The notes under the pieces are model-generated. The model did no database searches, was not told where the DNA came from, and saw only the letters and a list, made by a program, of their open reading frames with translations. A stretch of DNA of 64,000 nt from the NCBI GenBank assembly GCA_021155885.1, contig JAJNBB010000001.1, positions 5,698-69,697 of the forward strand. The letters are read 5' to 3'. The position numbers and the translations under genes were made by a program. Below, in pieces: positions 172 through 61,648 of this stretch (its first letter is position 1; each line of letters begins with the position of its first letter). This stretch comes from Fibrobacteria bacterium. GTDB lineage: Bacteria > Fibrobacterota > Fibrobacteria > UBA11236.

Positions 172-216
172 CGGTAGTCGCTACTCAGAGGCGCGTTGAA
201 ACCGAGTACTGAGTAC
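172..216. repeat. heptamer inverted-repeat element E1 (GTACTCG family, short)
   Basis: Left arm ggtagtc gctactc ag (172-188), 13-nt spacer, right arm cgagtac tgagtac (202-216). About 11/15 complementary. Both arms closely match the arms of E8 at 37.5 kb. Confidence 0.6.
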
Positions 217-243
217 AAAAGCGGGATCCGCATCGGATCCCGC
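217..243 (-). terminator. rho-independent terminator of the phosphoesterase gene
   Basis: Perfect hairpin gcgggatccg-cat-cggatcccgc (221-243). On the minus strand it is followed by TTTT (217-220), just downstream of the stop at 250. Confidence 0.7.
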
Positions 244-249
244 GTCTCT

Positions 250-1464
250 TCAGCGGAGGGCGATTTTCCCGAGGGAGGCCTTCTTCCCCTCTTCGCGCAG
301 GAAGTAAATGCCCGCCGGGACGCGGCGGCCCTTGGAGTCCAGACGGTTCCACTCGACGCGCCCTCCCGCGGCGGAGAGCACGCGCAGGCGCTGCCCGCGC
401 ACGTCGGTGATCTCGAGGCGCTTCACGCGGGCGGGGATTTGCTGGTTCCACCCGGTCCCGGGAATCGAGAAAAGGATGTGGTGGTGGGCCGCCGAGGCCT
501 GGCGGGGCCTGGCCGCCGCGGGTGTCCCCATGCTGATCGTTTTGCTCAGGATCAAGGTGGAGCTCCAGGTTTGCGAGGTCGCGGTGGCCGAGGCGCTGCG
601 GGAGATCGCCTGCAAGTGCCCGTCGGTGACCTTGACGACCACCATGTCGCCGAGAATGGCGGCCCCGTTGTCGATCACGTCGATGGTGCTCTTCCACTTG
701 TACATCTTCTTGGAGTGGGAGTGGCCGTGCAGGATGGCCACGACGTTGTAGTTCTGGACCACGTTCCAGAGCGCGTCCTTCATGACGTTCGTCCAGTCGT
801 TGTTGGCGTTGCCGTTGGCGTCCATGGTGTAATGCTGGAAGAGGATGATGGGGCGGCCGCTGGTGCCCACGTTGGCGGCCAGGTCGGCCGTCAGGAATTC
901 GAGGGCCTTGAGGGGCCGGTAGCCGTTATAGCCCAGCTCGGTGCTGCCGGCGTAGATGTTGAGGTTGACGAAGTGCACGCCGTCCCAGTCCCAGGAGTAG
1001 TGGAAACCCGACGAGTCCAGGCTGGTGAAGTAGGACCGGCGGGGAACGTTGCGGGCGATCATGCGGCGCACCATGTACAGGGTGTCCTTGATGGTCCCGG
1101 TGGTGTAGAAGTCATGGTTGCCGAAGGCGTCGAAGACGGGGTACCTGAGCTTCTTCTCGCCCGCGATTCCATAGTCCGACGTGTACTCGTTCCATAAAAC
1201 GGTATCCTGGCGCTCGATCAGGTCTCCGGCGATCAGCACGCCCCGGGGCGTGGCCACGGTATCGCCGATGGCGGCCGGGTAGGCCGTGCCGGGCAGCGCG
1301 TTCATGTAGCGCACCATGCGGTTGCGGTTGGTGTCGTTGGCCGCCGAACGGTTTCCGTAGTGAACGTCGGAGGTCAGGAAAAAGGTGAAGTTGGTGGCGG
1401 CCGAGGCGGGGAGGACGCCCAACAGGGCGACGAAGAGCGATTTGTGCAGCAGGGAAGAAAGCAT
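250..1464 (-). CDS. secreted calcineurin-like metallophosphoesterase with C-terminal FlgD-Ig/T9SS-like domain
   Basis: ORF 250..1545(-). Start moved to the ATG at 1464, giving signal peptide MLSSLLHKSLFVALLGVLPASA. Metallophosphoesterase motifs DVHYG, GDLIE, GNHDFY and LHGHSH. C-terminal tail ends ...VPAGIYFLREEGKKASLGKIALR. Confidence 0.8.
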   Translation of the reverse strand: MLSSLLHKSLFVALLGVLPASAATNFTFFLTSDVHYGNRSAANDTNRNRMVRYMNALPGTAYPAAIGDTVATPRGVLIAGDLIERQDTVLWNEYTSDYGIAGEKKLRYPVFDAFGNHDFYTTGTIKDTLYMVRRMIARNVPRRSYFTSLDSSGFHYSWDWDGVHFVNLNIYAGSTELGYNGYRPLKALEFLTADLAANVGTSGRPIILFQHYTMDANGNANNDWTNVMKDALWNVVQNYNVVAILHGHSHSKKMYKWKSTIDVIDNGAAILGDMVVVKVTDGHLQAISRSASATATSQTWSSTLILSKTISMGTPAAARPRQASAAHHHILFSIPGTGWNQQIPARVKRLEITDVRGQRLRVLSAAGGRVEWNRLDSKGRRVPAGIYFLREEGKKASLGKIALR

Positions 1465-1590
1465 AATGGATCCGGGGGTTCGGTGGTTTTTCCTGGCTCT
1501 AATGATTTTAACGTAAACCCGTTTTCCCGGGTTGTGATGTTTCAAAAAGATTACCGCCGTGGTGATTTTCCGCCAATTTACACCTATACT

Positions 1591-1935
1591 ATGGGCATGA
1601 AAGCTTTACTCCTGATCCCCTTCGCCGCGCTCCTGGCGGCCTGCGCCGGTTCGATGCAAGGTCTCACGCCCGCCTGCCGGACGATGGAGGCGCAACTGCA
1701 GGAGAAAAAGGAGCTGGACGCCAAGGTCAAGGCCACGATGAACGAGGTCCGGGACTACCGTAAGCAGGGAGACACGGCCTCGGCCGCCTCCGCCGAGCAC
1801 CGCCTCGAAGGCATGCTCCAGAGCCAGCGCCTGCTCAAGGAATCGCTGGACCAAAGCAGCCGCGATTGCTCGCCTGCCATGCAGGATCCCATGCCGGTGC
1901 GCGACCCCGCGACGCGGGATAATTTGCCGAAGTGA
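1591..1935 (+). CDS. small lipoprotein (hypothetical)
   Basis: In-frame ATG at 1591 within ORF 1360..1935. N-terminus MGMKALLLIPFAALLAACAGS has a lipobox (LAAC). The remainder is coiled-coil-like and charged. Confidence 0.55.
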   Translation: MGMKALLLIPFAALLAACAGSMQGLTPACRTMEAQLQEKKELDAKVKATMNEVRDYRKQGDTASAASAEHRLEGMLQSQRLLKESLDQSSRDCSPAMQDPMPVRDPATRDNLPK

Positions 1936-2034
1936 GGTAAGAGGTAGGAGGTAATAGGCGACAGGGTACAGGCTTTCGGCCCCGTCTTACCTCTTACCTC
2001 CTACCTCCTACCTCCTACCTCCTACCTGTTACCT
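1936..2034. repeat. heptamer inverted-repeat element E2 (GGTAGGA family)
   Basis: Left arm ggtaaga ggtagga ggtaata gg (1936-1958) starts immediately after the TGA at 1933-1935. Right arm is 7 tandem units NNTACCT (1986-2034) and ends 7 nt before the ATG at 2042. Confidence 0.85.
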
Positions 2035-2041
2035 TTCATAC

Positions 2042-4723: not shown

Positions 4724-5125
4724 ATGAAGATTTCCTTTCTTCTCGCCCCGTTGTTCGCGGCCTTGCTCGCGACGGGCTGCGCGTCCACGCGCGTCACGAG
4801 CCAGGATCCCGAGGCCGAGATTTTTCTCGACGACAAGCCCTTGGGCGTGGGACAGGCCACCGTCCGCAGGGTAGGGCCCCCGCGCCAGGTGACGCTCGAG
4901 GCCCGACGCGGAGGAAAGGTCGTCGGCCAGAGCGAGATGCGGCGATCGTTCACCGGCATGACGTTGGTCTGGGGACTCTTCAGCTATTACACAGGCCTGT
5001 ATTGGGGATGGTACTTTCCCGAATCGGTGATCATCCCGGTTCCGCAGTCCGCCGCGGGCGCGGCGGAGTTCGTCAGCCCTTGGGCCGATCCCCGCAACAG
5101 CGTGTGGATGAAGCCGCTTCAATGA
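4724..5125 (+). CDS. PEGA-like lipoprotein (hypothetical)
   Basis: Lipoprotein signal MKISFLLAPLFAALLATGC. Segment AEIFLDDKPLGVGQATV resembles a PEGA domain. C-terminal hydrophobic segment. Confidence 0.6.
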   Translation: MKISFLLAPLFAALLATGCASTRVTSQDPEAEIFLDDKPLGVGQATVRRVGPPRQVTLEARRGGKVVGQSEMRRSFTGMTLVWGLFSYYTGLYWGWYFPESVIIPVPQSAAGAAEFVSPWADPRNSVWMKPLQ

Positions 5126-11170: not shown

Positions 11171-11246
11171 TGGTGGAGTTAAGGAGAATCGAACTCCTGA
11201 CCTCCTGCTTGCAAAGCAGGCGCTCTACCAATTGAGCTATAACCCC
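11171..11246 (-). tRNA. tRNA-Ala(UGC)
   Basis: Reverse complement is GGGGTTATAGCTCAATTGGTAGAGCGCCTGCTTTGCAAGCAGGAGGTCAGGAGTTCGATTCTCCTTAACTCCACCA. It has a G3:U70 pair, anticodon loop TT-TGC-AA and encoded CCA. Confidence 0.92.
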
Positions 11247-11286: not shown

Positions 11287-11363
11287 TGGTGGGCCTGGGA
11301 AGACTTGAACTTCCGACCCCCGCCTTATCAGAGCGATGCTCTAACCAACTGAGCTACAGACCC
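11287..11363 (-). tRNA. tRNA-Ile(GAU)
   Basis: Reverse complement is GGGTCTGTAGCTCAGTTGGTTAGAGCATCGCTCTGATAAGGCGGGGGTCGGAAGTTCAAGTCTTCCCAGGCCCACCA. It is near-collinear with E. coli tRNA-Ile(GAU) and has encoded CCA. Confidence 0.92.
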
Positions 11364-11491: not shown

Positions 11492-12460
11492 TCAGGACAA
11501 GGATTCGGGCGGAAAAAGGCATTTCGGGTCCCAACCGAAGGACTCCAGCCGCCCAGCGAGGTCCTCGGGCGAGAAGGCTCGCGCCATGGGACCGCTCGTC
11601 GTCGAGAATTGATGCCGGAAAAAGGTGGTTTGCTTCTTGGCGTATTGCCGGGTGCGCGCGAGAACTTTTTCGACGAGGGCTTCCGAAGGCCTCGACGCAA
11701 GAGCCGGGTCCGCCGCGAGGGCCTCCGCGATCTCACGATACCCCAGGGCGTTGAAGGCCGCGGTGGTCGCGGGATCGTAGGCCCTCAAAAGCCCGCGCAC
11801 CTCGTCGATCCAGCCTTGCGCGAACATCGCGCGCACGCGGGCTTCGATGCGCGCGTGCAGAACGTCGCGCGCCGGATCGAGCCACGCGAAGGGGACGCCG
11901 TCGAACGCGGCGTCGGGTCGCGCGTTTCCGTTTCCGCGCGCATAAGATTTTCCCGTGAACCGCCAGTTCTCCAATCGTTTTTGAAGGCGATAGCGGTCTT
12001 GGGGGGCCACGCCTTCCATGCCGCCGGGATCCAGGGCCGACAGGTCGGCGTGAACGGCGGCGGCTCCGCGCTCCGCGAGCTCGCGCTCCGCCGCCGCTCG
12101 GATCTGCGGGGGCGTTTCGCCCCGATCGTGCGCCGAGGGGAACATCCATTCCTTCAGGTACAGTCCCGTGCCGCCCACCACCAAGAAACGGGACTCCGGT
12201 CGCGACGCAAGCAGGGACGCGGCCTCGGCGCGGAACCTTTGCGGGGAAAACGGTTCGCGCGGGTCCGCGCATCCCACGAGGTGGTGCGGGACCTCGGCCC
12301 GTTCATCTAGCGTGGGCGCGCCGGTTCCGATCGAAAACCCGCGATAGAGCTGGCGGGAGTCGGCCGAGATTATCTCCAGCCCGCGCGCGCGCGCCCAGCG
12401 CAAGGCAAGCGCGGACTTTCCCGAGGCGGTCGGGCCTCCCAGAAGGGCGACGAGGGGCAT
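11492..12460 (-). CDS. miaA: tRNA dimethylallyltransferase
   Basis: N-terminal P-loop LLGGPTASGKSALAL, then ISADSRQLYRG and GGTGLY motifs. About 322 aa. Confidence 0.9.
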   Translation of the reverse strand: MPLVALLGGPTASGKSALALRWARARGLEIISADSRQLYRGFSIGTGAPTLDERAEVPHHLVGCADPREPFSPQRFRAEAASLLASRPESRFLVVGGTGLYLKEWMFPSAHDRGETPPQIRAAAERELAERGAAAVHADLSALDPGGMEGVAPQDRYRLQKRLENWRFTGKSYARGNGNARPDAAFDGVPFAWLDPARDVLHARIEARVRAMFAQGWIDEVRGLLRAYDPATTAAFNALGYREIAEALAADPALASRPSEALVEKVLARTRQYAKKQTTFFRHQFSTTSGPMARAFSPEDLAGRLESFGWDPKCLFPPESLS

Positions 12461-12488
12461 GGACGGGGAAGATACTTTGTCGGCCTTG

Positions 12489-12642
12489 CTTCGTCGTTGA
12501 GGGTTGGTGACAGCTCCCCCGGGCCTCGCCGTGTCGAGGTCTTCGCGGTCGCTCGCCGCGAACGGGCAAGCGAGGCGCGAAATAGGTCAACAAAAGCAAT
12601 GGAGCGTCCAAAGAGGGAAAACCCCAACTCCCAACCCCCAAC
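12489..12642. repeat. heptamer inverted-repeat element E3 (GTTGGGG family)
   Basis: Left arm cttcgtcg + gttgagg gttggtg a (12489-12510). Right arm accccaa ctcccaa cccccaa c (12621-12642). Lies in the divergent miaA/deacetylase intergenic region, and the right arm ends 26 nt before the ATG at 12669. Confidence 0.75.
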
Positions 12643-12668
12643 TTTTCCATTACTAAATTCGCCTTTGC

Positions 12669-13841
12669 ATGAAGCCTTCTTCGCCGTCCCCCAAAAAACG
12701 CCTGCCGCGTCTTCTGTTGCTTGCGCTGCTTGTCGTTCTGCTGGCCGGGGCGGGGTGGTTTTTCGGCAAGGATCTTTTCCGCGCCGGGGATCCGGGTTCC
12801 GCCCTCGCGACAGCCGCGCCGGACAAGGAGGAGGACGCGGCCTGGCGCAAGGCGAACCCCTGGCTCTACACGCGCGCGGAGTACGAGCCTTTTCGCGACG
12901 CGCTGATTCTCCCGCTGGCGCGCGCCGGCGCCCTGGGGCCGCGCAGCGTCAAAAAGCGCGGCGCCCTCGTGGAGGTCAGTTTCCCCGCCGGCCGGCCGAT
13001 ACACGAATACGCTTACGAAGTGGAGTCGCTGTGCGCGCGCGCCGGCCTTGTGGTGGTCGAAGGCCGCGAAACCGGGAACGACCAAGTCGAATACCGCCTC
13101 GCCGACGCGCAGGGCCGTTCCCTGGCGCTGCGCCTGGTGCTGGGCGACAACGCCCTGCCGGGATCGGTGCGCATGGCGCTGGTGATCATCGGCCTGGGGA
13201 ACGCCTCCGAGGAAGACCTCCAGGCCTGGCTGGAATTCGGGGAGGCCGTGACGCTGGTCCTGCCGGATACCTCCGCCTTGCTGGCGCGCTTCAAGGCGCG
13301 GGAACCCGAGTTGCGGCACGACATCTTCGTGGAGTTGCCGATGGAGCCTTCCACCTATCCCTACGTGAAGCCGGGGCCGCGGGCCCTGTTCATCGACCAC
13401 TCCCGCGATCAGGCCGAGGGCATCCTGCGCGGCCGTCTCGAGGCCTATCCCAAGGCGCGCGGCTTCGCCACGACGCATGGCGACCGCGCCATTGAGAACC
13501 CGCAGTTGATGGAAAGCGTGCTGGACTTCATGGCCTCGCGTTCGCTGGTGTTCCTGGACCTGACCGGCTCGCCGCTCAGCCAAACCACGGCGCTCTCCCA
13601 AAAGTCGGGCGCCGAAAGTTTTTCCGCGCGCGCGCAGGTCCCCGGTTCCGAAGGGAATCTCGAGGCCGAGCTCGACCGCCGCGCCGCCCTCGCCCAAAAA
13701 TCCGGCGAGGGAATCTGGGTTCTGCGCCACTCCCCGGGCCTGCCGCGGACGCTCGCCCGCCTTTTCGGCCGCCGCGCCGGGGCCTTCGGGGAACTCGGGT
13801 TGTTGTGGGCGCCGCTGGGCGAACTGCGGCGCGGGAAATAA
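12669..13841 (+). CDS. divergent polysaccharide deacetylase family (YibQ-like) protein
   Basis: N-terminal TM anchor. The C-terminal ~250 aa show the pattern MALVIIGLG...LPMEP..YP...PGPRAL....THGDRA....L, typical of the YibQ/DUF610 family. Confidence 0.7.
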   Translation: MKPSSPSPKKRLPRLLLLALLVVLLAGAGWFFGKDLFRAGDPGSALATAAPDKEEDAAWRKANPWLYTRAEYEPFRDALILPLARAGALGPRSVKKRGALVEVSFPAGRPIHEYAYEVESLCARAGLVVVEGRETGNDQVEYRLADAQGRSLALRLVLGDNALPGSVRMALVIIGLGNASEEDLQAWLEFGEAVTLVLPDTSALLARFKAREPELRHDIFVELPMEPSTYPYVKPGPRALFIDHSRDQAEGILRGRLEAYPKARGFATTHGDRAIENPQLMESVLDFMASRSLVFLDLTGSPLSQTTALSQKSGAESFSARAQVPGSEGNLEAELDRRAALAQKSGEGIWVLRHSPGLPRTLARLFGRRAGAFGELGLLWAPLGELRRGK

Positions 13842-13853
13842 GGAAGGTACGGC

Positions 13854-14570: not shown

Positions 14571-14586
14571 ACCCGCGAGTCTTCAA

Positions 14587-14624
14587 CAAAAAAGCCCCGG
14601 CTCGCGAGAGCCGGGGCTTTTTTG
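14587..14624. terminator. bidirectional rho-independent terminator
   Basis: aaaaaa-gccccggctc-gcga-gagccggggc-tttttt lies between the convergent pdxJ (+) and the 14646..16568 (-) gene. Confidence 0.85.
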
Positions 14625-14645
14625 TGTCGGGATGCGTGCGTGCGC

Positions 14646-17002: not shown

Positions 17003-18001
17003 ATGAATCGCTTCTTCGCCCCCGGCGGCGAATTCGCCCTGATCGAACGGATGTTCGCCGCCGACCACTTCGCCCGCGACGGCCGCGGCCTGGGGGACGA
17101 CGCCTTCGTGTGGGATCGGTCCGGCGCCTCCCGGCCCCTGCTCATCACCTCCGACGTCAGCGCCGAGGGCGTGCATTACCGCCTCGACTGGACGTCTCCC
17201 GAGCGGGCGTTGCGCAAGGCCCTGGCCGCCAGCCTTTCGGACATCAACGCCATGGGCGGCCGGAGCCGCAAGGCGTTTTTCAATTTGGGGGCGCGCCGAA
17301 ACTGGTCCGACCCGGTCTATGACGCTCTCGGCGCCGCGCTGCGCGCGATGGAGGAGGCCTTCGGCTTCTCCGTCGCGGGCGGGGACACGGTGAAGCTTCC
17401 CGACTCGAGTTTTTTCAGCTTCGCCGTGGCGGGTGAGGTCGAGGGACGTCCGCTGCTGCGGAGCGCCTGCCGTCCGGGCCACCGGGTCTACGTCAGCGGC
17501 GCGTTGGGCGGCTCCGCCGCGGGGCTCTACCTCCTGAAGACGCGGGACGTCCTCGCCCGGGCGGGGGCCGAGGAGCATCCCCTCGTGCGGGCCCACCTCG
17601 ACCCCCGCCCCCCGCTCGAACTGGGTCCCCTGCTGGCCGCGCTCGGGGGCGACGGCCGGGAGATCGCGGCCATCGACATCAGCGACGGCCTGTCCTCCGA
17701 ACTCGCCCACCTCGCGCGGCAGTCGGGATGCGCCTTGCGCGTCGACGCGGACCGGCTTCCGGCGCATCCCGCTTTGGCGGGCGCCTTCGCCGCCGGCTTC
17801 CCGGTTCGCGACTACCTCCTGCATGGCGGCGAGGAGTATCAACTTCTGTTCACGGGAAACTTCGACGAGGCGGAGCTCGCGCGCCTGAACGCCGTGGCCC
17901 CCGTCACCGAAATCGGAATCGTGGAAGCGGGAGAGGGAGTGATGTTGCGAGAGGGCGGAGAGGACAGGGCGTTGGAAGCGAAGGGGTATTCACACGGGTA
18001 G
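17003..18001 (+). CDS. thiL: thiamine-monophosphate kinase
   Basis: GEFALIERMF...GLGDDAFV...SDVSAEGVHYRLDW, an AIR-synthase-related fold pattern typical of ThiL. 332 aa. Confidence 0.85.
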   Translation: MNRFFAPGGEFALIERMFAADHFARDGRGLGDDAFVWDRSGASRPLLITSDVSAEGVHYRLDWTSPERALRKALAASLSDINAMGGRSRKAFFNLGARRNWSDPVYDALGAALRAMEEAFGFSVAGGDTVKLPDSSFFSFAVAGEVEGRPLLRSACRPGHRVYVSGALGGSAAGLYLLKTRDVLARAGAEEHPLVRAHLDPRPPLELGPLLAALGGDGREIAAIDISDGLSSELAHLARQSGCALRVDADRLPAHPALAGAFAAGFPVRDYLLHGGEEYQLLFTGNFDEAELARLNAVAPVTEIGIVEAGEGVMLREGGEDRALEAKGYSHG

Positions 18002-18165
18002 GAGGCAATAGGTAGGAGGTAGGAGCCAAGCAAAGCATTCCTCTGATCTAGGCGTGGCGCGGTTGGCCCATGCGGAACGTGCGCCTCCCGCGCTAAAATT
18101 TCATTTTCGTTTCTTGCCGAGCCTCCTACCTACTACCTACTACCTACTACCTACTACCTACTACC
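17997..18165. repeat. heptamer inverted-repeat element E4 (GGTAGGA family)
   Basis: Left arm ggtagga ggcaata ggtagga ggtagga g (17997-18025) embeds the thiL TAG stop. ~96-nt spacer. Right arm is cctccta + 5 x cctacta + cc (18122-18165) and ends 10 nt before the uppP ATG. Confidence 0.9.
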
Positions 18166-18175
18166 TTTCCCTCCC

Positions 18176-20717: not shown

Positions 20718-20758
20718 CGCCGAGCCTTCAGGCCGGAGAGCTTCGCTCTCCGCGCCCA

Positions 20759-20791
20759 CAAAAAAGCCCGCGGTTTCCGCGGGCTTTTTTG
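20759..20791 (+). terminator. rho-independent terminator after the MFS gene
   Basis: aaaaaa-gcccgcgg-tttc-cgcgggc-tttttt. Confidence 0.85.
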
Positions 20792-20892
20792 TGTCCAACC
20801 CCCCAATTCCTCCCTCAAAGCCCCTGAATTCCTTCATGCTGGACATACCCGGAGGCAAAGGTTATCTTGGGTTTTTCTTCTGAAAACGACAT

Positions 20893-21779: not shown

Positions 21780-21880
21780 AATGATGAATGCGGAATGATG
21801 AGTGATGAAAACGCGCGCTTCAAAGCGCTGAAGTCAGCGGAAAATTCTTTCATAATTCATCATTCCTAATTCATCATTCT
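21780..21880. repeat. heptamer inverted-repeat element E5 (AATGATG family)
   Basis: Left arm aatgatg aatgcgg aatgatg agtgatg (21780-21807). Spacer contains a small hairpin (gcgc..gcgc). Right arm ttcataa ttcatca ttcctaa ttcatca ttct (21849-21880) ends 4 nt before the folC ATG. The arms are ~26/30 complementary. Confidence 0.9.
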
Positions 21881-21884: not shown

Positions 21885-23273
21885 ATGACTCCCTCGTCCT
21901 ACCCTTCCGCCCTTCGCTGGCTGTACGCCCGCAACCAGTTCTCGATCAAGCTCGGCCTCGAGGCCACGCGGGCGTTGCTGGCGGCGCTGGGCAATCCGGA
22001 ACGCGGCGGCGTCTTCCTGCATGTGGCGGGCACCAACGGCAAGGGAAGCGTGTGCGCCAACCTGGCCGCCATGCTTCCCGCCCTCGGTGTCGGGCGCGTC
22101 GGGCTTTATACCTCCCCGCATCTCGTGAGCTTCCGCGAACGCATCCGCGTGGACGGGCGGCCCATTCCCGAGGCCGCCGTGACGGCCTGGATGCGGGCCG
22201 CGTTCCCCGTGCTCGAGGCCCAGAATCCCACGTACTTCGAATGCGTGACCGCGCTGGCGTTCGACTGGTTCCGCCAAAGCCGCTGCGGCGCGGTCGTGCT
22301 GGAAACCGGCCTGGGCGGCCGCCTGGACGCGACCAACGTCGTCGCGCCCGCCGTCACGGTCATTACCTCGATTTCGCTGGACCATACCGCGATCCTGGGG
22401 GACACGCTCGAGGCGATCCAGGGAGAGAAGCTGGGCATCGTCAAGCCGGGCGTGCCGGTGGTCGTCGACGAAGCGCGCGAGGACTTGGCCGGCCGGGCCG
22501 AGGCGCATGCCCGCGCGATCGGCGCCCCGTTCGTCAACCTCGCCGGAAGATTGCGGCCCGGAGAGCAGGGGACGTGGACGGTGCGCGGCCAATGGGCGTC
22601 GTATGAACTGCCGGCGGGGTTGCGGGCCGAAGGCCATCAGCTGCGCAACGCGGCCCTTTCGGTGCTGGCCCTGGAGGCTTTTCACGGCCGGGCCCTGCCG
22701 AATGGCGGGCCTTCGGAACCGGGCGCTGAACCGTTATGGCTGGCCGCGTTGCGCGGGGCGCGCCTGCCCGGCCGCACCCAGCGGATAATGCCGCGGACCG
22801 GCGCCGCGGAAGGATCCACGCGGCCCGCGCGGGTGCCGGTAATGCTGGACGGCGCGCACAACCCCGCCGGCGTCGACGCCTTGTGCGCCGTGCTGAAGAC
22901 GGAGGGAGGCCGCGCGCGCGTGTTTTTCTCCGTGATGCGCGACAAGGAATATCGGGCGGTGTATCGCGCGTTGCGCGCGGCGGCGAGCGACGTGGTCTTT
23001 CTGGACATGAGCGCGCTTTTCCCGCGCGCGCTTTCTTTCGCGGAGTTGAAGGGCGCCCTGGAGGATGCCCGCGAAAGTCCGCCCCGCAACGTCCCGCTTG
23101 CCTGGGACGGAATCGAGCCGCTCCTGCGCGAGGGAACGGGCGCCGATCGGGCGGTGTTCTGCGGATCCCTGTTTTTGCTGGGCGAGGTCATCCCGCTGCT
23201 TTTGCCTCACTATGAGGGGCTGGAGGAGTTTGAGGAACTCGCGGGGGAAAAGGAAATGATGAAGGATGAATGA
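21885..23273 (+). CDS. folC: bifunctional folylpolyglutamate synthase / dihydrofolate synthase
   Basis: HVAGTNGKGSV P-loop, a Mur-ligase-like middle domain and the DGAHNP motif. 462 aa. Confidence 0.9.
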   Translation: MTPSSYPSALRWLYARNQFSIKLGLEATRALLAALGNPERGGVFLHVAGTNGKGSVCANLAAMLPALGVGRVGLYTSPHLVSFRERIRVDGRPIPEAAVTAWMRAAFPVLEAQNPTYFECVTALAFDWFRQSRCGAVVLETGLGGRLDATNVVAPAVTVITSISLDHTAILGDTLEAIQGEKLGIVKPGVPVVVDEAREDLAGRAEAHARAIGAPFVNLAGRLRPGEQGTWTVRGQWASYELPAGLRAEGHQLRNAALSVLALEAFHGRALPNGGPSEPGAEPLWLAALRGARLPGRTQRIMPRTGAAEGSTRPARVPVMLDGAHNPAGVDALCAVLKTEGGRARVFFSVMRDKEYRAVYRALRAAASDVVFLDMSALFPRALSFAELKGALEDARESPPRNVPLAWDGIEPLLREGTGADRAVFCGSLFLLGEVIPLLLPHYEGLEEFEELAGEKEMMKDE

Positions 23274-23350
23274 GGAATGATGAAGGGAGAATGGGCTTTT
23301 CTTCCCTTCTTTCGCGTTTATTCCTTATTCATCATTCCGCATTCATCATT
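23255..23350. repeat. heptamer inverted-repeat element E6 (AATGATG family)
   Basis: Left arm aatgatg aaggatg aatgagg aatgatg aagggag aatgggc (23255-23296) overlaps the last folC codons and contains its TGA (23271-23273). Right arm attcctt attcatc attccgc attcatc att (23320-23350) ends 14 nt before the GTG at 23365. Confidence 0.9.
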
Positions 23351-23364
23351 TTATCTTATCCCCC

Positions 23365-24567
23365 GTGGACGCCATCAAGCTCAAGAATTCCTGCATCTGC
23401 GGCAACACGCTTCCCTACGCCGAATGCTGCGGGCTTTTTCAGGCGCCGCCCGCCGAGGGCGGGGACGCGTCGGACCGCGCGGCGTTTCGCCACGATTTGC
23501 ATGAGCTCTTCATGTATCTGTTTCCCTTGCGGAACCTGTACCAGGTTTATTGGGAGCGCCTGAGCGAGGAAGAATACCCGCATCACCTGCTGATGGCCGA
23601 TGCCGACTACGGCCGCGCGATGATGGCGAACTTCTTCTGGGACTATTCCGTGCAGTTTTCCGACGCGCGGCCCATCCTGCGGGCGGCCCGCGACATCGAG
23701 GAAAAGAACCTGCGCCTGGCCAACGACTTCCGCCAGTGGAGCCTGTCCCCCTTCTGGCTGTGGTACGTGATCGAGGCCGACAACCGGCACGCCTACATCC
23801 GCATGGCGGATTCGGACCGGACGCGGCGCATCGAGCACGGGGGAGAGCTGCCCGAACCGGGCCGCTACTTCGCCGGGCGCATCCTTTCGTACCGGGGCAA
23901 GGAGCAGGTCCATCCCGCGCTTCTGGTTTTTTCCGAGGGCGCCGCGACCGTGCTTCCCGACCGCCTGCGCGGAATCTGCAAGGCCCTCGGGATCAAGTCT
24001 GGCAGCGGCCTGCGCCCCGACGTGCAATGCGAGGAATGGCGCCGCCACGGGTCCCTGCTGCTTTCGCTGTGGCGCGAAATGACCTACGACGCGCGCGTGG
24101 GGATTCCCTCGCGCACGGTTTCATCGCCGCATTCCTTTCACCTGCCCGCCCCGGAACGGTGGAACACGGCGCGCCAGTTGCAGGAGGGCGGGGCCGTCCC
24201 CACGGGACGCAACCGTTTCGAACTGCGCTACCGCGCGCTGACGTTGGCGCGCCTGGAGGCGGGGACCTCGGGGTTGCAGGTGACCTTGCTCGACGAGGCC
24301 TACCGACCCTATGTGTTTCACTGGCTGGGGGACCACCTCGGCATGGCCTCGGGATCTTCGCCGGGCGGCGATCGCATGGAATCCGCCCCGCCCGCGCCGG
24401 GAGACTGGAAGGCTTGGGCGCGCGCGGCCCATGATCTTTTGAACGGCGAAACGCCGATGGAGGCCAGCCTCCATGATTTCGGCCGGCGCCGCCTGCGCGT
24501 CCTGCTGGAAGAACTGCCGCTGAAAGAAGCGGAACTGACGGCGCTGCAGCGGCAACTGGGCCTCTAG
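23365..24567 (+). CDS. SEC-C metal-binding motif protein (hypothetical)
   Basis: GTG start. N-terminal CICGNTLPYAECCG is a SEC-C type zinc motif. I do not recognise the remaining ~380 aa. Confidence 0.6.
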   Translation: MDAIKLKNSCICGNTLPYAECCGLFQAPPAEGGDASDRAAFRHDLHELFMYLFPLRNLYQVYWERLSEEEYPHHLLMADADYGRAMMANFFWDYSVQFSDARPILRAARDIEEKNLRLANDFRQWSLSPFWLWYVIEADNRHAYIRMADSDRTRRIEHGGELPEPGRYFAGRILSYRGKEQVHPALLVFSEGAATVLPDRLRGICKALGIKSGSGLRPDVQCEEWRRHGSLLLSLWREMTYDARVGIPSRTVSSPHSFHLPAPERWNTARQLQEGGAVPTGRNRFELRYRALTLARLEAGTSGLQVTLLDEAYRPYVFHWLGDHLGMASGSSPGGDRMESAPPAPGDWKAWARAAHDLLNGETPMEASLHDFGRRRLRVLLEELPLKEAELTALQRQLGL

Positions 24568-24572: not shown

Positions 24573-26381
24573 ATGGGTTCCGCCGTTTTGCGCGCCGCCG
24601 TTCCCGCGTTCATCCTCCTTTGCGGAGCGCTCCCGGCCTTTTCCGCCGCCGCGGCGCCCTTCGATACGGTCACGCGCCGCCTGATGGCGCCGGCCGGTTT
24701 TCGGCCCGTCGATTTCGACATGCTGATCAGTTTCCGGGCCGAACCGCCCCGTATGCTTACGACCGTCGAGGCATTGCTCCGCCGTCCGCGGAGCGTGGAC
24801 TCGCTGGTGCCGGCGCTGCGCGCGGCCCTTGGCGAAAATTCCGCCCCCGACTTTTCCCACGCCCTGTGGCCCTGGATCGATGTCCATACCCCGGCACGGA
24901 CCGTGCGCTCGGGCAAGGATGAAATCCTGGTCGCCGAGGAATTGCTGCGCTTGTTCCTGAAGCCCCTGGCTTCGACGGAGGTGGCCTATCTGCGCGCCGA
25001 GGCGCCCGCCCTGCTCGTGCATGGCGCGGAGGACACCTCGCTGGACCCGATCGCCTCCGAGATCGAACGCCTGCGCGGCGAGGCGCGGACCGACTCGGTG
25101 ATGCGCCTCGCGGGCCGGCTTCCCCTCGAGAGGTTGGCCGAGGCCTCCCAGGCCCTGGAGCAGGCCCGCCGCAAAATCCTGGGCTCGGCCCGCCATGACG
25201 GGGTCGCCGTGACCATCGAACGCCTCAAGGCGTTGCGCGCGCGCGGAACCCCCGTGACGATCGGGTCCGAAGGCGACGACGTGCATCGCCTCGACCGGGG
25301 CCTGGTGTTCGATCCCGGCGGCAACGACCGCTACGAGTTTCCCGACACCGCGCGCCCCGGCGGCTGGCTGCTGGTGATCGACCTCGCGGGCGACGATGAA
25401 TACCGCGCGCGCGACAGCGTGGGGGCCGCGGCCGCCTTCCTTTCAGTGCAGCTCCTCCACGACGAGACGGGACACGATCGCTATCTCGGCGGCGACCTGG
25501 CCTTCGGCGCGGCGGTGATGGGCTACAGCCATCTCTTCGACGGCGGAGGAGACGACGTCTACGAGGCGCGCAGCGCTTCGCTCGGCTTCGCCTTTCAGGG
25601 CGTCGGGATCCTTCAGGACGCCGGGGGCAACGACCTTTACTCCTCTTGGTTTTTCTCGCAGGGCGCCTCGGCCACGAACGGCCTCGGCCTTTTGCTCGAC
25701 GCCGCGGGCAACGATCACTACCTCTCCCGCCCCGTCTTTCCCGACGACCTGCGGTACCGGGATCACTTCCTGAGCATGTCCCAGGGCTTCTCCAGCGGTT
25801 TCGCGCCGCGCCACGCGGGCGGCATCGGCGTGCTGTGGGACCGTTCGGGCGAGGATCTGTACGCAGCCGACATCTTCGGGCAGGGAGCGGGATATTGGTT
25901 CGGCTGGGGCCTGCTGATGGACGACGCGGGAAGCGATCGCTTCACGGCGCACCAGTACGCGCAAGGCGCGGGCGTGCACTTCGCCGCGGGAACCTTGTGG
26001 GACAAGGCCGGCGCCGACGTGCGGGTCAGCAAGGGCGTCAGCCAGGGTTGCGGGCACGACGGAGGCTTCGGCCTGCTCGTGGACGAGCAGGGCAACGACC
26101 GGAACCTGGCGGTCGACATGAGCGCGGGCGCGGGCAGCGCCAACGGCCTGGGCGTTTTTCTGGACATGAACGGGGCCGACGGCTACGGCCTGGGCGACCT
26201 CCGAATGACCCTGGGACACGGGGACATGCGCCGCGACCGGGGCAGCTTCGGGTTCTTCCTGGACCTGGGCGGCCAGGACGCCTACCCCGCCTCCACGGAC
26301 GGGCCGCGCGACAACGCGGCGTGGCGCGCCTATGACGGGAAGGTCAGGGGATATGGCTATGGGATGGATACAGAGGAATGA
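24573..26381 (+). CDS. secreted solenoid-repeat protein (about 12 D-x-x-G-x-D-x-Y repeats), hypothetical
   Basis: Signal peptide MGSAVLRAAVPAFILLCGALPAFSAAAAP. Repeated DPGGNDRYEF, DLAGDDEYRA, DETGHDRYLG, DGGGDDVYEA, DAGGNDLYSS, DAAGNDHYLS, DRSGEDLYAA, DDAGSDRFTA and others at a ~23-28 aa period. Confidence 0.65.
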   Translation: MGSAVLRAAVPAFILLCGALPAFSAAAAPFDTVTRRLMAPAGFRPVDFDMLISFRAEPPRMLTTVEALLRRPRSVDSLVPALRAALGENSAPDFSHALWPWIDVHTPARTVRSGKDEILVAEELLRLFLKPLASTEVAYLRAEAPALLVHGAEDTSLDPIASEIERLRGEARTDSVMRLAGRLPLERLAEASQALEQARRKILGSARHDGVAVTIERLKALRARGTPVTIGSEGDDVHRLDRGLVFDPGGNDRYEFPDTARPGGWLLVIDLAGDDEYRARDSVGAAAAFLSVQLLHDETGHDRYLGGDLAFGAAVMGYSHLFDGGGDDVYEARSASLGFAFQGVGILQDAGGNDLYSSWFFSQGASATNGLGLLLDAAGNDHYLSRPVFPDDLRYRDHFLSMSQGFSSGFAPRHAGGIGVLWDRSGEDLYAADIFGQGAGYWFGWGLLMDDAGSDRFTAHQYAQGAGVHFAAGTLWDKAGADVRVSKGVSQGCGHDGGFGLLVDEQGNDRNLAVDMSAGAGSANGLGVFLDMNGADGYGLGDLRMTLGHGDMRRDRGSFGFFLDLGGQDAYPASTDGPRDNAAWRAYDGKVRGYGYGMDTEE

Positions 26382-27265
26382 TGTATCTCCGCGCGTTTTG
26401 TTCATTCCCCAGGATTGGTCCGCTTCGCGGTCTCGTCCTGGCGGCACTGCATTCCTCATTCATCCTTCCGCATTCCTCATTTGCTTGGACCCCACCCGTA
26501 TTCAGTCGCCTCGACAGCCTGTTCGTCACCGCCGCCACCGGCGAACCCCGCTTTCAGGCGGCGCGCGCGGCGGCGGAAAAGGCCCTGCTGGCCGACTCGG
26601 GAACGTTGCCTTATCTCCTGCGGAACCGGCTGCGCCGGCAGACTCCCCGCCAGCAGCATTACGTCGAGCGCCTGTTCACCCTGTCGAGCGATTCGGGCCG
26701 CAACCCCCGTCCGCGCGCGCTTCTCGCCGCCGCCCTGGCCGACGCGCCCTCCGACACGATCCGCGTCCAATTGCTGTCGATCGGCTCCTGGCTCGGAGAT
26801 TCTTCCTTCCGGACGGCCGCATTGCCCTGGCTCAAGTCTTCCTTCGAACCGGCACGCCGCATGGCCGTGCGCAACCTGGGAACCTACCCGGCGCCCCGCA
26901 ACCTCCCGCTTTTGCTGGAGGGGCTCTCCTCCGTGCAGGGACTGGAACTACAGCAGCGGCTGTGGTCGCTCGGGGCGCAAAAGTCCGCGCCCGACATCTC
27001 CCTCGCGCCTCTTCTCGCGGATCCCTATTTCTTTAACCGCCGCAAGGTGCGCGACCTGCTGCTGAAGACCGCGGACAGTTCCTGGGCGCGATTGGACTCC
27101 ATCCGGGCGCGGCAAACCCGCGTGACGGCCCGGGAGGAATGGTGGCTGCTGGCGCAGGACGCGCGGGACGGCCGCGCTTTCCTCGAAGCGGAGAGGGGCA
27201 AGATGACGGGGGAGGAGAGGAAATACTTCGGGGTCGAAGAAGAGGCGGCAGGCGGCAGGCGGTAG
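26378..27265 (+). CDS. HEAT-like repeat protein (hypothetical)
   Basis: ATG overlaps the upstream TGA (ATGA). No alternative in-frame ATG or GTG for ~70 codons. Repeats of the type RRMAVRNLGTYPAPRNLPLLLEGL are HEAT/PBS-lyase-like. The N-terminus is encoded partly by heptamer array E7, so the start is uncertain. Confidence 0.55.
   Translation: MMYLRAFCSFPRIGPLRGLVLAALHSSFILPHSSFAWTPPVFSRLDSLFVTAATGEPRFQAARAAAEKALLADSGTLPYLLRNRLRRQTPRQQHYVERLFTLSSDSGRNPRPRALLAAALADAPSDTIRVQLLSIGSWLGDSSFRTAALPWLKSSFEPARRMAVRNLGTYPAPRNLPLLLEGLSSVQGLELQQRLWSLGAQKSAPDISLAPLLADPYFFNRRKVRDLLLKTADSSWARLDSIRARQTRVTAREEWWLLAQDARDGRAFLEAERGKMTGEERKYFGVEEEAAGGRR
26451..26482. repeat. heptamer array E7 (AATGATG-family complement arm) inside or at the start of the next ORF
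   Basis: attcctc attcatc cttccgc attcctc attt. Only a weak local partner exists (ggaatgatg at ~26375). The perfect 19-nt partner is the E6 left arm (23261-23279). Confidence 0.7.
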
Positions 27266-37540: not shown

Positions 37541-37624
37541 GTACTCAGTAGTCGGTACTCGGTACTCGGTGAAAACACAACTCGCTTTTCGCTTTCTGAG
37601 TACAGAGTACTGAGTACCGACTAC
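37541..37624. repeat. heptamer inverted-repeat element E8 (GTACTCG family)
   Basis: Left arm gtactca gtagtcg gtactcg gtactcg g (37541-37569) starts right after the TGA at 37538-37540. 26-nt spacer. Right arm ctgagta cagagta ctgagta ccgacta c (37596-37624). About 23/29 complementary. Confidence 0.9.
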
Positions 37625-44456: not shown

Positions 44457-44515
44457 GACGGGGGACGGGGGACGGGGGACAATAGACTCCCGACCTCCGT
44501 CCCGCGGAGCGTCCC
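44457..44515. repeat. heptamer inverted-repeat element E9 (GACGGGG family)
   Basis: Left arm is 3 x gacgggg + gac (44457-44480), ~8-nt loop, right arm ctcccga cctccgt cccgcgg agcgtccc (44487-44515). Hand pairing gives a stem of about 19 bp including G-U pairs. Lies between sdhA and sdhB. Confidence 0.85.
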
Positions 44516-58316: not shown

Positions 58317-58326
58317 GGATAGGGAA

Positions 58327-58443
58327 GTTGTTGGTTGTTCGTTGTTGGTAAAGAGTTAGGGCGGCCGGGTGGCCGCCTTGAATAATGGAAAGCAAAAGGC
58401 TCCTCGGGCGCCGAATTGCATCCAACAACCAACAACCAACAAC
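58327..58443. repeat. heptamer inverted-repeat element E10 (GTTGTTG family)
   Basis: Left arm gttgttg gttgttc gttgttg gtaa (58327-58351). Spacer has an inner hairpin ggcggcc-gggt-ggccgcc (58361-58378). Right arm is 3 x ccaacaa + c (58422-58443), 27 nt before the thyA ATG. Confidence 0.9.
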
Positions 58444-58470
58444 TTTCCCGCCTTTCCTACCTTTTCCCCC

Positions 58471-59882: not shown

Positions 59883-59893
59883 GGGCGGGGAGC

Positions 59894-60107
59894 GTTGGGG
59901 GTTGGTGGTTGGGAGTTGGGGGTTAGCACAAACTTCGGCTTCCTTCCCGCGAAGCGTGGATCCCCGCCTGCGCGGGGATGAGGTGGTGGGTGCATCCCCT
60001 GCGGCGTGGGTCCCCGCCTACGCGGGGATGACGATGTAGTTCGCGCCCCTCCTCCAGGCGGGCACCAGCCCGCCGTGACTCCCACCACCAACCACCAACC
60101 ACCAACG
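59894..60107. repeat. heptamer inverted-repeat element E11 (GTTGGGG/GTTGGTG family) with nested palindromic repeats
   Basis: Left arm gttgggg gttggtg gttggga gttgggg gtt (59894-59924). Right arm ccaccac caaccac caaccac caacgac (60081-60107). ~156-nt spacer carries two 30-nt palindromic repeats. Confidence 0.9.
59954..60033. repeat. two direct copies of a 30-nt palindrome-containing repeat (REP-like; resembles type I-E CRISPR repeats)
   Basis: gcgtggatccccgcctgcgcggggatgagg (59954-59983) and gcgtgggtccccgcctacgcggggatgacg (60004-60033) are 27/30 identical. Each has the stem tccccgc/gcgggga with a 4-nt loop. They are separated by 20 nt. Confidence 0.8.
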
Positions 60108-60143
60108 ACGAAGTATGGCCCACAGAGAGTAAATTTTCCCATC

Positions 60144-61541
60144 ATGGCCCTCCGGAAACTCGAAACCCAGCTGCTGTACCCCGAATTCGTGCAGGCCGTG
60201 GAAACGGGCGACACGGAGGCGCTGGAGGCTTTGCGCGAACACCTGACGATGGAGGACATCGCGGAGCTGGTGGGAGAGCTGGAGGGGCCGGGCCGCGCGG
60301 ATTTCCTGAGCAAGGTTCCCGCGACCGAGGCGGCGGAGATTTTTCAGCAGTTGGATCTGACGGCGCAGCGCGAGACGCTGGACCTGCTTTCGACCTCGCG
60401 CATGGCGGGCATCATCAACGAGATGGATCCCGACGATCGCACGGCGCTGCTGGAGACGCTGCCGTCCCACAACACCAAGAGCCTGCTGAGCTTCCTGCGC
60501 CCGCGCGAGCGCGCGCAGGCGCAAAAGCTGCTGGATTTCCCCGAGGACAGCGTGGGCCGCCTGATGACGCCCGACTTTTTGGCCATCCGCAAGGAATGGA
60601 CGGTGGGCCGTTCGCTGGATTTCATCCGCTTCAACGGCGAGGACAAGGAAACCCTGAACGACATCTACGTGGTGGACCGCCAGGGCAAGCTGCTGGACGA
60701 CATCCCCATCCGCGAGTTCCTGCTGTCGCCGGGAGATCGCGCCATCGCGGACGTGATGGACGGGCACTACACGGCCCTGCTCGCCACCGCGCCGCAGGAA
60801 GAGGCCATCCAGGCCTTCAAGAAGTACAGCGCGCGCACGGCGCTGCCCGTGGTGGACGAGGAAGGTTTGCTCCTTGGCATCGTGACGATCGACGATATCC
60901 TGCACCTCGAGGAAAAGGAGACCACCGAGGACATCCAGAAGTTCGGCGGCGCGGCCCCCCTGGAGGAATCGTACCTCGAGGTTTCGTTCTGGAGCATGCT
61001 GCGCAAGCGCAGCGTGTGGCTGATCGTGCTGTTCTTCGGCCAGATGCTGACCGCCTCGGCGATGAGCTTCTACCAGATGGAAATCAGCAAGGCCGTCGTG
61101 CTGGCGCTGTTCATCCCCCTCATCATCAGCAGCGGCGGCAACTCCGGATCGCAGGCGGCCACACTGGTGATCCGCGCCCTCGCGCTGGGGGAGGTGGCCT
61201 TCACCGACGTGTGGAAGGTCCTGCGCCGCGAACTCCTCGTCGGGCTCGGCATGGGCCTCATCCTGGGCGTGATCGGGCTGTTGCGCGTTGTCCTGTGGGG
61301 CACCGCGTTCCAGTCCTACGGAGACCATTACCTCACCCTGGGTCTCGCCGTGGGCGTGGCGGTGATCAGCGTGGTCGCCTGGGGCAACATCGTCGGCTCC
61401 ATGCTCCCGCTGGTGCTCAAGCGCCTCGGACTCGATCCCGCGACCTCCTCCGCCCCCTTCGTGGCCACCTTCATCGACGTCACGGGGATCGTCATCTATT
61501 TCAACATCGCCTTGCTGGTGATGAGCGGGCGGTTGTTTTAG
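60144..61541 (+). CDS. mgtE: magnesium transporter MgtE
   Basis: N-domain, tandem CBS region (LPVVDEEGLLLGIVTIDDIL) and C-terminal TM domain with GGNSGSQ. 465 aa from the ATG at 60144. Confidence 0.9.
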   Translation: MALRKLETQLLYPEFVQAVETGDTEALEALREHLTMEDIAELVGELEGPGRADFLSKVPATEAAEIFQQLDLTAQRETLDLLSTSRMAGIINEMDPDDRTALLETLPSHNTKSLLSFLRPRERAQAQKLLDFPEDSVGRLMTPDFLAIRKEWTVGRSLDFIRFNGEDKETLNDIYVVDRQGKLLDDIPIREFLLSPGDRAIADVMDGHYTALLATAPQEEAIQAFKKYSARTALPVVDEEGLLLGIVTIDDILHLEEKETTEDIQKFGGAAPLEESYLEVSFWSMLRKRSVWLIVLFFGQMLTASAMSFYQMEISKAVVLALFIPLIISSGGNSGSQAATLVIRALALGEVAFTDVWKVLRRELLVGLGMGLILGVIGLLRVVLWGTAFQSYGDHYLTLGLAVGVAVISVVAWGNIVGSMLPLVLKRLGLDPATSSAPFVATFIDVTGIVIYFNIALLVMSGRLF

Positions 61542-61545
61542 GAAA

Positions 61546-61648
61546 GTTGTCGGTACTTAGTTGTTGGTTGTTGGTGAACGCAATTCTCTTCCTTTGACGC
61601 CACCCGGCCGTCGGCCTATCCGATTACCAACAACTAACAACCAACAAC
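61546..61648. repeat. heptamer inverted-repeat element E12 (GTTGTTG family)
   Basis: Left arm gttgtcg gtactta gttgttg gttgttg gtg (61546-61576) begins 4 nt after the mgtE TAG. Right arm ttaccaacaactaacaaccaacaac (61624-61648) ends 10 nt before the ATG at 61659. Confidence 0.9.

Follow-up and report, generated by a model that had tools for sequence, protein, structure and literature searches.

Hairpins with arms of tandem heptamers at gene borders in an uncultured Fibrobacteria lineage

Results

Heptamer hairpins in the window

A 64-kb stretch of DNA from an uncultured Fibrobacteria bacterium (GenBank assembly GCA_021155885.1, contig JAJNBB010000001.1, forward-strand positions 5,698 to 69,697; referred to here as the window, in whose own numbering its features are given) contains, at its gene borders, hairpin elements built on a common plan, in which an arm of tandem 7-nt units is followed by a non-conserved spacer and then by an arm of complementary 7-nt units. 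This architecture had been proposed for twelve loci in an original prediction and was borne out by repeat and inverted-repeat searches, covering the window and about 300 kb of related DNA, in which a strict period-7 detector of our own was also employed. In the window, Tandem Repeats Finder revealed period-7 arrays at every one of the listed loci, and the complementary arms were paired independently by the inverted-repeat search (I1-I8, I13, I15 and I16). Homologues of FolC and MgtE place the window, with a GC content of about 65%, in the uncultured Fibrobacteres/Fibrobacteria.

Gene contexts were checked by Pfam and homology, gene calls based on GC content at third codon positions (GC3) being unreliable, as for 12303-14495 on the − strand. 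The distances from helix to codon were taken from the folds, the automatic values being inflated by spurious outer pairs. In the following description, z is the RNAfold value relative to shuffled sequences.

The first clear hairpin, GAGGTAr ×3.6 / TACCTCC ×7, occupies 1934..2034 (z = −5.45) and has the longer arm on its 3' side, terminating 7 nt upstream of a radical-SAM gene start at 2042 (Pfam). A weak hairpin of GTTGrGG ×2 / CCCAACy ×3 at 12497..12642 (z = −2.31) lies at a divergent junction, between miaA (− strand, 11492-12460, start 12460), the translation of which has a typical MiaA N-terminus (GPTASGKS...ISADSRQLYRG), and a polysaccharide deacetylase gene (+ strand, start 12669; Pfam). 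At 17997..18166, GGTAGGA ×4 / CCTACTA ×6.4 overlaps the stop codon of a thiL-like gene (18001; Pfam) and ends 10 nt before the start of uppP (18176).

The folC gene has a hairpin on each side. Between accD (stop 21729) and folC (start 21885), AATGATG ×4 / TTCATCA ×4.4 spans 21780..21880 (z = −6.15), and a second element of the AATGATG family spans 23240..23365 (z = −6.32), its 5' arm encoding the final FolC residues (...EKEMMKDE) with their stop codon and its 3' arm reaching a GTG start at 23365. Further downstream, an asymmetric + strand element at 26373..26482 (z = −2.35), composed of a GAGGAATGATG remnant and CATTCCT ×4.6, lies wholly within the 5' coding region of a HEAT-repeat protein gene, the remnant including an ATGA stop/start overlap. 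The start ATG is in the 5' arm, and the 3' arm (26451-26482), which had been taken as intergenic, is translated as the hydrophobic core of the signal peptide (...LHSSFILPHSSFA, continuing as WTPP). Element-encoded signal peptides are found at 26378-26482 in the window, at 4909-5005 in the related contig L009 and at 7909-8026 in L011; in the element-free L092 and L094 the signal peptides are ordinary and unrelated, and conservation of the HEAT-repeat protein begins at AWTPPxFSRLDSLF. An element not listed originally, GGCGGCA ×3 (27243-27265) / TACCGCCAGCCGCC (27317-27330), was found at a convergent junction (z = −2.55), its 5' arm overlapping the stop codon TAG at 27263-27265.

In the second half of the window, GTACTCG ×4.3 / GAGTACy ×4 (37541..37624, z = −6.72) directly follows the stop codon of an FkbM-methyltransferase gene (37540; Pfam) and ends 28 nt before a start at 37653. 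As had been predicted, one element lies within the sdhA-sdhB junction: GACGGGG ×3.4 with a degenerate complement and a 6-nt spacer (44457..44515, z = −4.02), between the sdhA stop at 44445 and the sdhB start at 44534 (Pfam). Upstream of thyA (start about 58471; Pfam), GTTGTTG ×3.3 / CCAACAA ×3.1 forms a hairpin (58322..58448, z = −8.97) with a GC hairpin nested in its spacer. Between folA (stop 59882) and mgtE (start 60144), GTTGGkG ×4.4 / CCACCAA ×3.9 (59893..60107) encloses a 156-nt spacer with two GC-rich palindromes; the orthologous junction in L104 carries the same unit family. Finally, an element of the GTTGTTG/CCAACAA family (61543..61658, z = −6.12) begins just past the mgtE stop (61541) and reaches the start of a methyltransferase gene at 61659 (Pfam).

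The element at 172..216 (GTAGTCG/GTACTCA, about two units per arm, z = +0.10) is doubtful. It lies just past the U-tract terminator (219-250) of a − strand phosphoesterase gene, and all that speaks for it is the sequence GTAGTCGsTACTC that it has in common with 37548 and with L011 12158, a family resemblance to the hairpin at 37541. The list of twelve loci was correct as to the arrays, and needed amendment in the insignificant fold of 172-216, the coding nature of 26451-26482 and the omission of 27243-27330. Among the 13 elements now recognized, nine lie at co-directional junctions, one at a divergent and one at a convergent junction, and two in uncertain contexts. The earlier count of ten between co-directional + strand genes was thus too high, as 12497 is divergent and the open reading frame (ORF) upstream of 1934 (1360-1935) has no support from Pfam or GC3.

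Period-7 arrays exceed random expectation

The heptamer hairpins are a real feature of this DNA, far beyond chance. Strict period-7 arrays numbered 15 in the window versus a mean of 0.75 (maximum 4) in 200 dinucleotide-preserving shuffles, and elements consisting of an array plus its complement numbered 8 versus a mean of 0.13 (maximum 2), so that the initial observation withstood this control. When the non-coding DNA alone was shuffled, the figures were 13 versus 0.23 arrays and 5 versus 0.01 paired elements. The enrichment was limited to period 7, periods of 8-11 giving 0-2 arrays. As a negative control, 80 unrelated metagenome loci (765 kb; FolC 28-51% identical) were retrieved with universal FolC motifs, and the density of arrays was 22 per 100 kb in loci of the lineage versus 3.8 in this set.

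Folding supported part of the list. The z values ranged from −4.0 to −9.0 at seven loci (1934, 21780, 23240, 37541, 44457, 58322 and 61543), whereas they were weak (−2.3 to −2.6) at 12497, 26366 and 27243, and 172-216 did not fold better than its shuffles. With complementary arms, spacers of 6-161 nt and strong folds at these seven loci, the elements have the inverted-doublet form of repetitive extragenic palindromic (REP) sequences and of the hairpins made of two REPs (REPINs). Rfam returned only tRNAs and one chance miRNA match (gathering threshold for the whole window, E-value threshold for 57.3-61.8 kb).

Unit families and arm polarity

Six families sharing their period and not their sequence had been proposed. 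There are indeed multiple families, and these reduce to fewer superfamilies (GGTAGnn, AATGnnG, GTTGnnG and GTAsTCG) joined by single-base steps. Higher-order variants of 12-14 nt, namely GAATGnGGAATG, AGGAGGyAATAGG, GTAGTCGGTACTC and AGACGGTAGACGG, are common to non-orthologous loci and to different genomes. No conserved sequence of REP length (about 20-25 nt) recurring in near-identical copies was found in the 64 kb of the window plus the approximately 300 kb of related DNA, same-family loci sharing the 7-mer and at most these variants. Elements of the same family tend to neighbour each other, although this is suggestive only (p = 0.06), and runs of G are present only in the GACGGGG and GTTGGGG units. 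Arms range from 2 to 11 units and may be unequal (3.6 vs. 5.7-7, 4 vs. 8 and 11 vs. 4), and some arrays lack a partner altogether; both features point to slippage.

The polarity of the arms was scored in 42 elements from the window, its relatives and three control loci. The paired 5' arm had more G than C in 36 of them, the reverse in one (L100 505-641) and neither in five (p = 5.5e-10), and the pooled paired bases of the 5' arms were 398 G, 331 A, 226 T and 83 C. The original prediction had presented the same polarity on the + strand as a strand signal, which was mis-framed: the reverse complement of a hairpin with a G-rich arm followed by a C-rich arm keeps that polarity, which is symmetric between strands and therefore says nothing on strand. 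The real asymmetry is that, on both strands, the 5' arm is poor in C and the 3' arm poor in G, so that the stop-adjacent arm is C-poor and the start-adjacent arm G-poor whatever the orientation of the genes.

The sole C-first element, L100 505-641, has 11 vs. 4 units and lies between − strand genes; when it is read in sense, TTTGAGG ×4 of the long arm comes to stand before a start codon with a clear Shine-Dalgarno (SD) sequence (AAGGAG). Relatives do carry elements between − strand genes. Cumulative GC skew climbs across the window, the + strand of which may be the leading one.

The arms also affect gene annotation. As 5' arms hold ATG, GTG and TTG together with stop codons, and the G-poor 3' arms almost no stop codons, annotated starts in their vicinity are unreliable; ORF finders start or extend genes within arms at L011 7924 and at 58369, 60006 and 26378 in the window. 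The stop codons in 5'-arm units were also considered as independent evidence and discarded, since the proportion of stop-bearing units (about 63% by hand count) is close to that expected by chance for C-free heptamers (about 56%).

Occupancy and replacement at orthologous junctions

Syntenic loci were compared for the folC region (L001-L011 and L092-L097) and for the mgtE region (L098-L104). Elements have been gained, lost or replaced wholesale in this lineage, and both arms change together. In many relatives, heptamer-arm hairpins stand at the same junctions with other units. At accD-folC, where the window has AATGATG, the units are AAGATGA / AAGCGGA in L011 (FolC 84% identical to that of the window), GATG-type in L003 and L004 (62% and 56%), GGTAGGC in L009 (90%), TTACGAr in L002 and L007 (59% and 83%), AAATCGG in L006 (64%), AATTGAG in L094 (69%) and AATTAAA in L008 (98%), each with the matching complement in its 3' arm. 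Downstream of the HEAT-repeat gene, the convergent junction has an element in the window, L002, L004, L009 and L011, and its units are different in all five.

Other relatives are devoid of elements at these places, and presence/absence polymorphism, which the original prediction had suggested looking for, was found at orthologous junctions. No heptamer hairpin was detected at accD-folC in L001, L005, L092, L095 and L096, the gap being of just 20 nt in the last three, and element-free relatives have junctions of 17-47 nt at the corresponding places. Conversely, L011 carries a GTAGTCG element at 12140-12275, where the corresponding window junction (30580-30666) is empty; no target-site duplication could be defined from this pair.

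A change between near-identical strains was detected in L008, whose coding flanks are 97.3-98.5% identical to those of the window and whose flanking DNA is about 97.7% identical. Both elements flanking folC are unalignable there, keeping only the outermost units (GAATGAG...CTCATTC) of the window elements, and both interiors have AATTAAA/AATTGAG arms with differing spacers. Judging from these sequences, replacement of a whole interior would require that sequence be copied in from another element, whether through conversion or through insertion, and the 12-14-nt variants shared between loci are in line with such copying. Three pairs of contigs from different samples (L009/L010, L098/L099 and L102/L103) are 99.99-100% identical across their elements, and hence give no information on short-term slippage.

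Position relative to genes and terminators

Helices lie close to the codons that border them. At 8 of 9 co-directional junctions the helix includes the stop codon or lies at most 12 nt from it, in agreement with the proximity claimed for the left arm; the distance from the end of the helix to the next start is 0-36 nt, and at about half of the junctions it does not exceed 10 nt, so that the proximity claimed for the right arm held as well, with a range somewhat wider than the 4-36 nt given. Elements are also tolerated inside a C-terminal tail (FolC) and a signal peptide (HEAT-repeat protein). Most of the elements are internal to probable operons (accD-folC, sdhA-sdhB and thyA-folA-mgtE).

As stated in the original prediction, plain intrinsic terminators do not explain the elements. 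No T-run follows the 3' arms, and a promoter/terminator scan showed no excess and called none of the heptamer elements. Canonical bidirectional terminators, with an A-tract, a GC stem and a T-tract, were identified at operon ends (219-250, 14586-14625, 20757-20793 and about 33556-33590), and these are a class of hairpin clearly separate from the heptamer elements.

G·U pairs stabilize only the strand that bears them, the opposite strand having A·C mismatches instead. Both strands were thus compared in 26 elements with a defined sense strand, and no sense-strand bias in folding was detected, the sense strand being more stable in 15 and the antisense strand in 11 (mean difference −0.5 kcal/mol). 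Neither was there an excess of G·U pairs in sense folds (88) over antisense folds (84) in these elements. The folds thus show no sign of selection on the transcript, which favours a strand-symmetric process at the DNA level as the keeper of arm complementarity.

Comparison with known repeats

The short tandemly repeated repetitive (STRR) sequences of heterocystous cyanobacteria, reportedly described by Mazel and co-workers in 1990 as tandem heptanucleotides with several families per genome and mostly intergenic, had been put forward as an analogue, sensibly so, as both consist of multi-family heptameric arrays. The unit sequences of the window presumably differ from those of STRR. The hosts are cyanobacteria in one case and Fibrobacteria in the other, and hairpins tied to stop and start codons are not known for STRR. 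Pairing is rare both in STRR and in the GGGGAyT repeats of Nostoc PCC 7120, only a few arrays of the latter having an inverted partner.

The closest precedent is found in a different phylum. Genomes of Xanthomonas campestris and X. axonopodis have 183-186 GGGAnTn arrays each, of which 70-75 form convergent pairs (Rehm et al. 2015, PMC4692102), so that the idea that heptamer-built inverted doublets were undescribed was wrong, such GGGAATC pairs having been reported. These arrays have 2-26 heptamers, and about 90% of them are intergenic; their mean distance from the 3' end of the upstream ORF is 28 nt, most stand between co-directional genes, and their lengths at a given gene are not conserved from one species to the other (PMC4692102). 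The two systems are alike in having tandem heptamers of at least two units, mostly intergenic, and convergent pairs with the G-rich arm first (36 of 37 scorable elements here); as the Xanthomonas pairs are likewise convergent, the polarity appears to be general. They differ in that Xanthomonas has a single family, GGGAnTn, with G-quadruplex potential, whereas the window has many families, most of them without G-runs. Conserved occupancy of junctions, replacement of families and spill-over into coding ends are features of the window lineage absent from the published description of Xanthomonas. What seems not to have been described before is that so many families occur in a single genome and turn over at fixed junctions.

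Other repeats are more distant. The TAACTGA repeats (2-6 copies) of marine Beggiatoaceae, some cyanobacteria and Bacteroidetes (MacGregor 2015, PMC4679880) are intergenic, gene-oriented and often end 1 nt before a start, for which translational regulation was proposed (PMC4679880). They resemble the present elements as intergenic heptamers near starts, with stop codons in the units, and differ in being essentially one unit in direct repeats (1 of 170 inverted), with no partner arm or hairpin. REPs and REPINs (Bertels & Rainey 2011, PMC3116915) are also extragenic palindromic doublets at junctions, of several families and able to form hairpins, whereas REPs have a fixed length of about 20-25 nt, many near-identical copies and a cognate REP-associated tyrosine transposase (RAYT), and the window elements share 7-nt units (some of them 12-14-nt variants) in variable number. 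Intercistronic stem-loops that serve selective processing and stabilisation of RNA, or couple translation by unfolding, such as those of the Clostridium cellulolyticum cip-cel operon (PMC4423207), likewise stand as stable structures between co-transcribed genes, with the structure mattering and the sequence free; they differ in being single and unique, with no tandem-repeat arms and an experimentally shown function.

Integron attC sites, which are likewise hairpins of diverse sequence between co-directional genes, were dropped as a further candidate, because the elements are flanked by housekeeping genes whose synteny is conserved (accD-folC, sdhAB and thyA-folA-mgtE) and not by exchangeable cassettes, no domain of an integrase was seen and only the GTTGnnG units resemble the core site (RYYYAAC ... 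GTTRRRY). Telomere-like repeat addition was dropped on account of the conserved housekeeping synteny and the differing units among loci.

The same architecture was observed outside the lineage. A gut Bacteroides contig (L075 678-746, equal to L090 678-746), assigned by a FolC 84-100% identical to database proteins of which the named ones are all from Bacteroides spp., carries a 30-bp hairpin, TGAGTTA ×4 / TAACTCA ×4, between co-directional genes, which matches the window elements in architecture and polarity. Two control loci, L017 1783-1891 and L060 8940-9068, also show hairpins with heptamer arms, and further heptamer sites are present in L083 (921-982, 3148-3167, 8673-8696 and 9113-9140) and L069 (12412-12525); the units across these four loci are AAGTGAA and TGAAGTC in hairpins, and GTTGAGG ×9, CTCAAAT and GTTCAAr ×16 in partnerless arrays. 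The presence of this architecture in L075/L090, L017 and L060 indicates that the class is broader than the Fibrobacteria lineage and largely undescribed.

Other features of the window

Inside the spacer of the folA-mgtE hairpin there are two copies of a GC-rich palindrome, TCCCCGCCTGCGCGGGGATGA, at 59961-59981 and 60011-60031, without a match in Rfam. Its core, CCCGCCTGCGCGGG, recurs only at the orthologous junction upstream of mgtE (L098 6689-6702, L099 3204-3217, L100 9822-9835 and L101 541-554), and TCCCCGCCTGCGCGGGGATGA might represent either a structure conserved in the mgtE leader or another, REP-like kind of element.

Two adjacent − strand tRNA genes, tRNA-Ala(TGC) at 11171-11246 and tRNA-Ile(GAT) at 11287-11363, form a pair of the rRNA-spacer type, with no rRNA gene in the window. 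The dnaN gene for the DNA polymerase III beta clamp (39309-40802, − strand) has no adjoining dnaA and has an enoyl reductase gene upstream; its ORF exceeds the Pfam match by about 125 codons, so that translation probably begins at an internal start.

Discussion

The elements belong with the convergent pairs of heptamer arrays known from Xanthomonas, of which they are an expanded form with multiple families. As to their nature, the account that we favour, with a confidence somewhat short of even, is that they are REP-like palindromes made of heptamer simple-sequence repeats, maintained at the DNA level, tolerated at gene borders and probably gating or coupling downstream translation in the mRNA. 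Replication slippage in a 7-nt register would alter the number of units, template switching from arm to arm (quasipalindrome correction, possibly out of register) would carry variants into both arms, and copying among elements sharing units would spread them to neighbouring elements; together, these processes could produce co-evolving arms with no need of RNA-specific selection. Elements would persist only at gene borders, where the hairpin would loop out the inserted DNA and so keep the upstream stop and the downstream start close in the mRNA. A ribosome ending the upstream gene may then open the base of the helix and expose a G-poor, unstructured leader, downstream translation being thereby coupled or gated in a lineage that apparently makes little use of SD sites; at convergent junctions the hairpins may serve as 3'-end structures. 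SD-like motifs are present in 17 of 61 leaders of related genomes. We infer that translational gating or coupling is the most likely effect on expression.

Several points weigh against this account. It does not explain why the period should be 7 or why the C-poor arm should come first, and the simplest cause of the polarity, a requirement for G-poor leaders, was ruled out because the leaders of element-free relatives have 26-28% G and are not G-depleted. Slippage cannot change a spacer, so that the replacement in L008 better fits insertion or conversion from another copy. Turnover appears episodic rather than steady, given that the element downstream of folC is still alignable between the window and L011 (about 90% identity, with flanks 83-91% identical). 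On a rough gene map, elements occupy 9 of about 22 co-directional + strand junctions and none of about 15 on the − strand (Fisher p about 0.005). At accD-folC there are 50 nt from stop to helix, several helices are separated from the start by 22-36 nt, and elements at divergent and convergent junctions cannot couple translation at all. If the elements were merely harmless, their retention down to a FolC identity of about 56-62% could be simple inheritance, and every effect at the RNA level is inferred.

An unlikely alternative is that they are mobile, of the type of REPINs or miniature transposable elements with inverted repeats (MITEs), each family being non-autonomous and copied preferentially into existing hairpins by a hairpin-recognising enzyme encoded elsewhere, whether a RAYT, a Y1 transposase of the IS200/IS605 type or another. 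Recurrence of families with their 12-14-nt variants at non-orthologous loci and in different genomes, presence or absence at orthologous junctions (L011 12140-12275 vs. window 30580-30666; accD-folC in L092, L095 and L096) and the identical new arms gained by the two adjacent elements of L008 within retained outer units, which resembles nested insertion, would all be expected of such elements. However, the arms vary in length and lack any long conserved sequence, their unit numbers are unequal, target-site duplications are not definable, and junctions have stayed occupied across deep divergence with units differing by single-base steps. No Y1 transposase/RAYT domain (PF01797) was detected in the approximately 50 window ORFs scanned by Pfam, which are not all of its ORFs, and none was listed among the genes tabulated for the related loci. 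The original description of the elements as REPIN-like and mobilised by RAYT is thus weakly supported: family recurrence, presence/absence and the L008 replacement agree with it, and the lack of a conserved REP and of a RAYT in the scanned ORFs does not.

Selection on the transcript is also judged unlikely as the force that keeps the elements, which would then be regulatory RNA hairpins (sites for RNase III or other processing, 3'-protective stems governing how stable operon segments are, a role proposed for REP sequences, terminators or pauses without a U-tract, or shields against Rho), with the heptamers incidental. The very stable stems between cistrons of probable operons, their distinctness from the canonical terminators at operon ends and the conservation of position with free sequence agree with this; moreover, the G-first polarity would pair the C-rich arm as soon as it is transcribed and hide a Rho-binding-like sequence, and intercistronic stem-loops set expression within operons elsewhere (PMC4423207). 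Nevertheless, the lack of a G·U excess in the sense strand, the close relatives that manage with 17-47-nt junctions, and the elements at divergent junctions and within coding sequence do not fit, and the 7-nt period and the partnerless arrays are left without explanation. The strict period despite unrelated units would be accounted for by arrays of binding sites for a protein reading DNA or RNA in 7-nt steps, such as one with a cold-shock domain that takes one heptamer each on single strands and on binding melts or locks the hairpin. Binding of CspB to heptamer repeats (as cited in PMC4679880) and the extra unpaired pyrimidine-rich units adjoining start codons are compatible with it, but the units are too diverse for a sequence-specific binder, the data indicate no particular protein, and polymerase slippage has been proposed as the cause of heptamer over-representation in many bacteria (as cited in PMC4679880); the binding-site explanation is consequently held to be very unlikely. 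Extremely improbable is an artefact of assembly or sequencing at low-complexity sites. Assembly is difficult where there are tandem repeats and palindromes, and every one of the related sequences was assembled from metagenomes, but the same architecture appears in independent assemblies (JGI, ENA, Logan and NCBI), the three contig pairs from different samples agree over their elements, and the flanking genes are intact and conserved.

Going beyond the account that we favour, DNA-level palindromes tolerated at gene borders, the elements of Fibrobacterota, Bacteroides and Xanthomonas might belong to one self-propagating class, with its own copying mechanism that writes one 7-nt unit into both arms and into neighbours, co-opted as stop-start 'clamps' that couple translation over long intercistronic gaps in SD-poor bacteria. 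This is regarded as quite unlikely; if true, the polarity would be the signature of the copying mechanism or of a constraint on the transcript (avoiding Rho loading or upstream starts).

In practical terms, the ATG and stop codons contained in the arms lead gene callers to set starts and ends inside them. More generally, no other long simple-sequence repeats are as over-represented as heptamers in many genomes of bacteria, and this lineage offers a natural experiment on them, with many families per genome, with junctions at which close relatives have an element, a replaced one or none, and with stop and start codons at the base of the helix. It makes testable the self-pairing of palindromes by DNA-level templating, the gating of translation by hairpins where SD use is rare, and the cause of a strand-symmetric polarity, and the Bacteroides hairpin occurs in a genus for which genetics is available.

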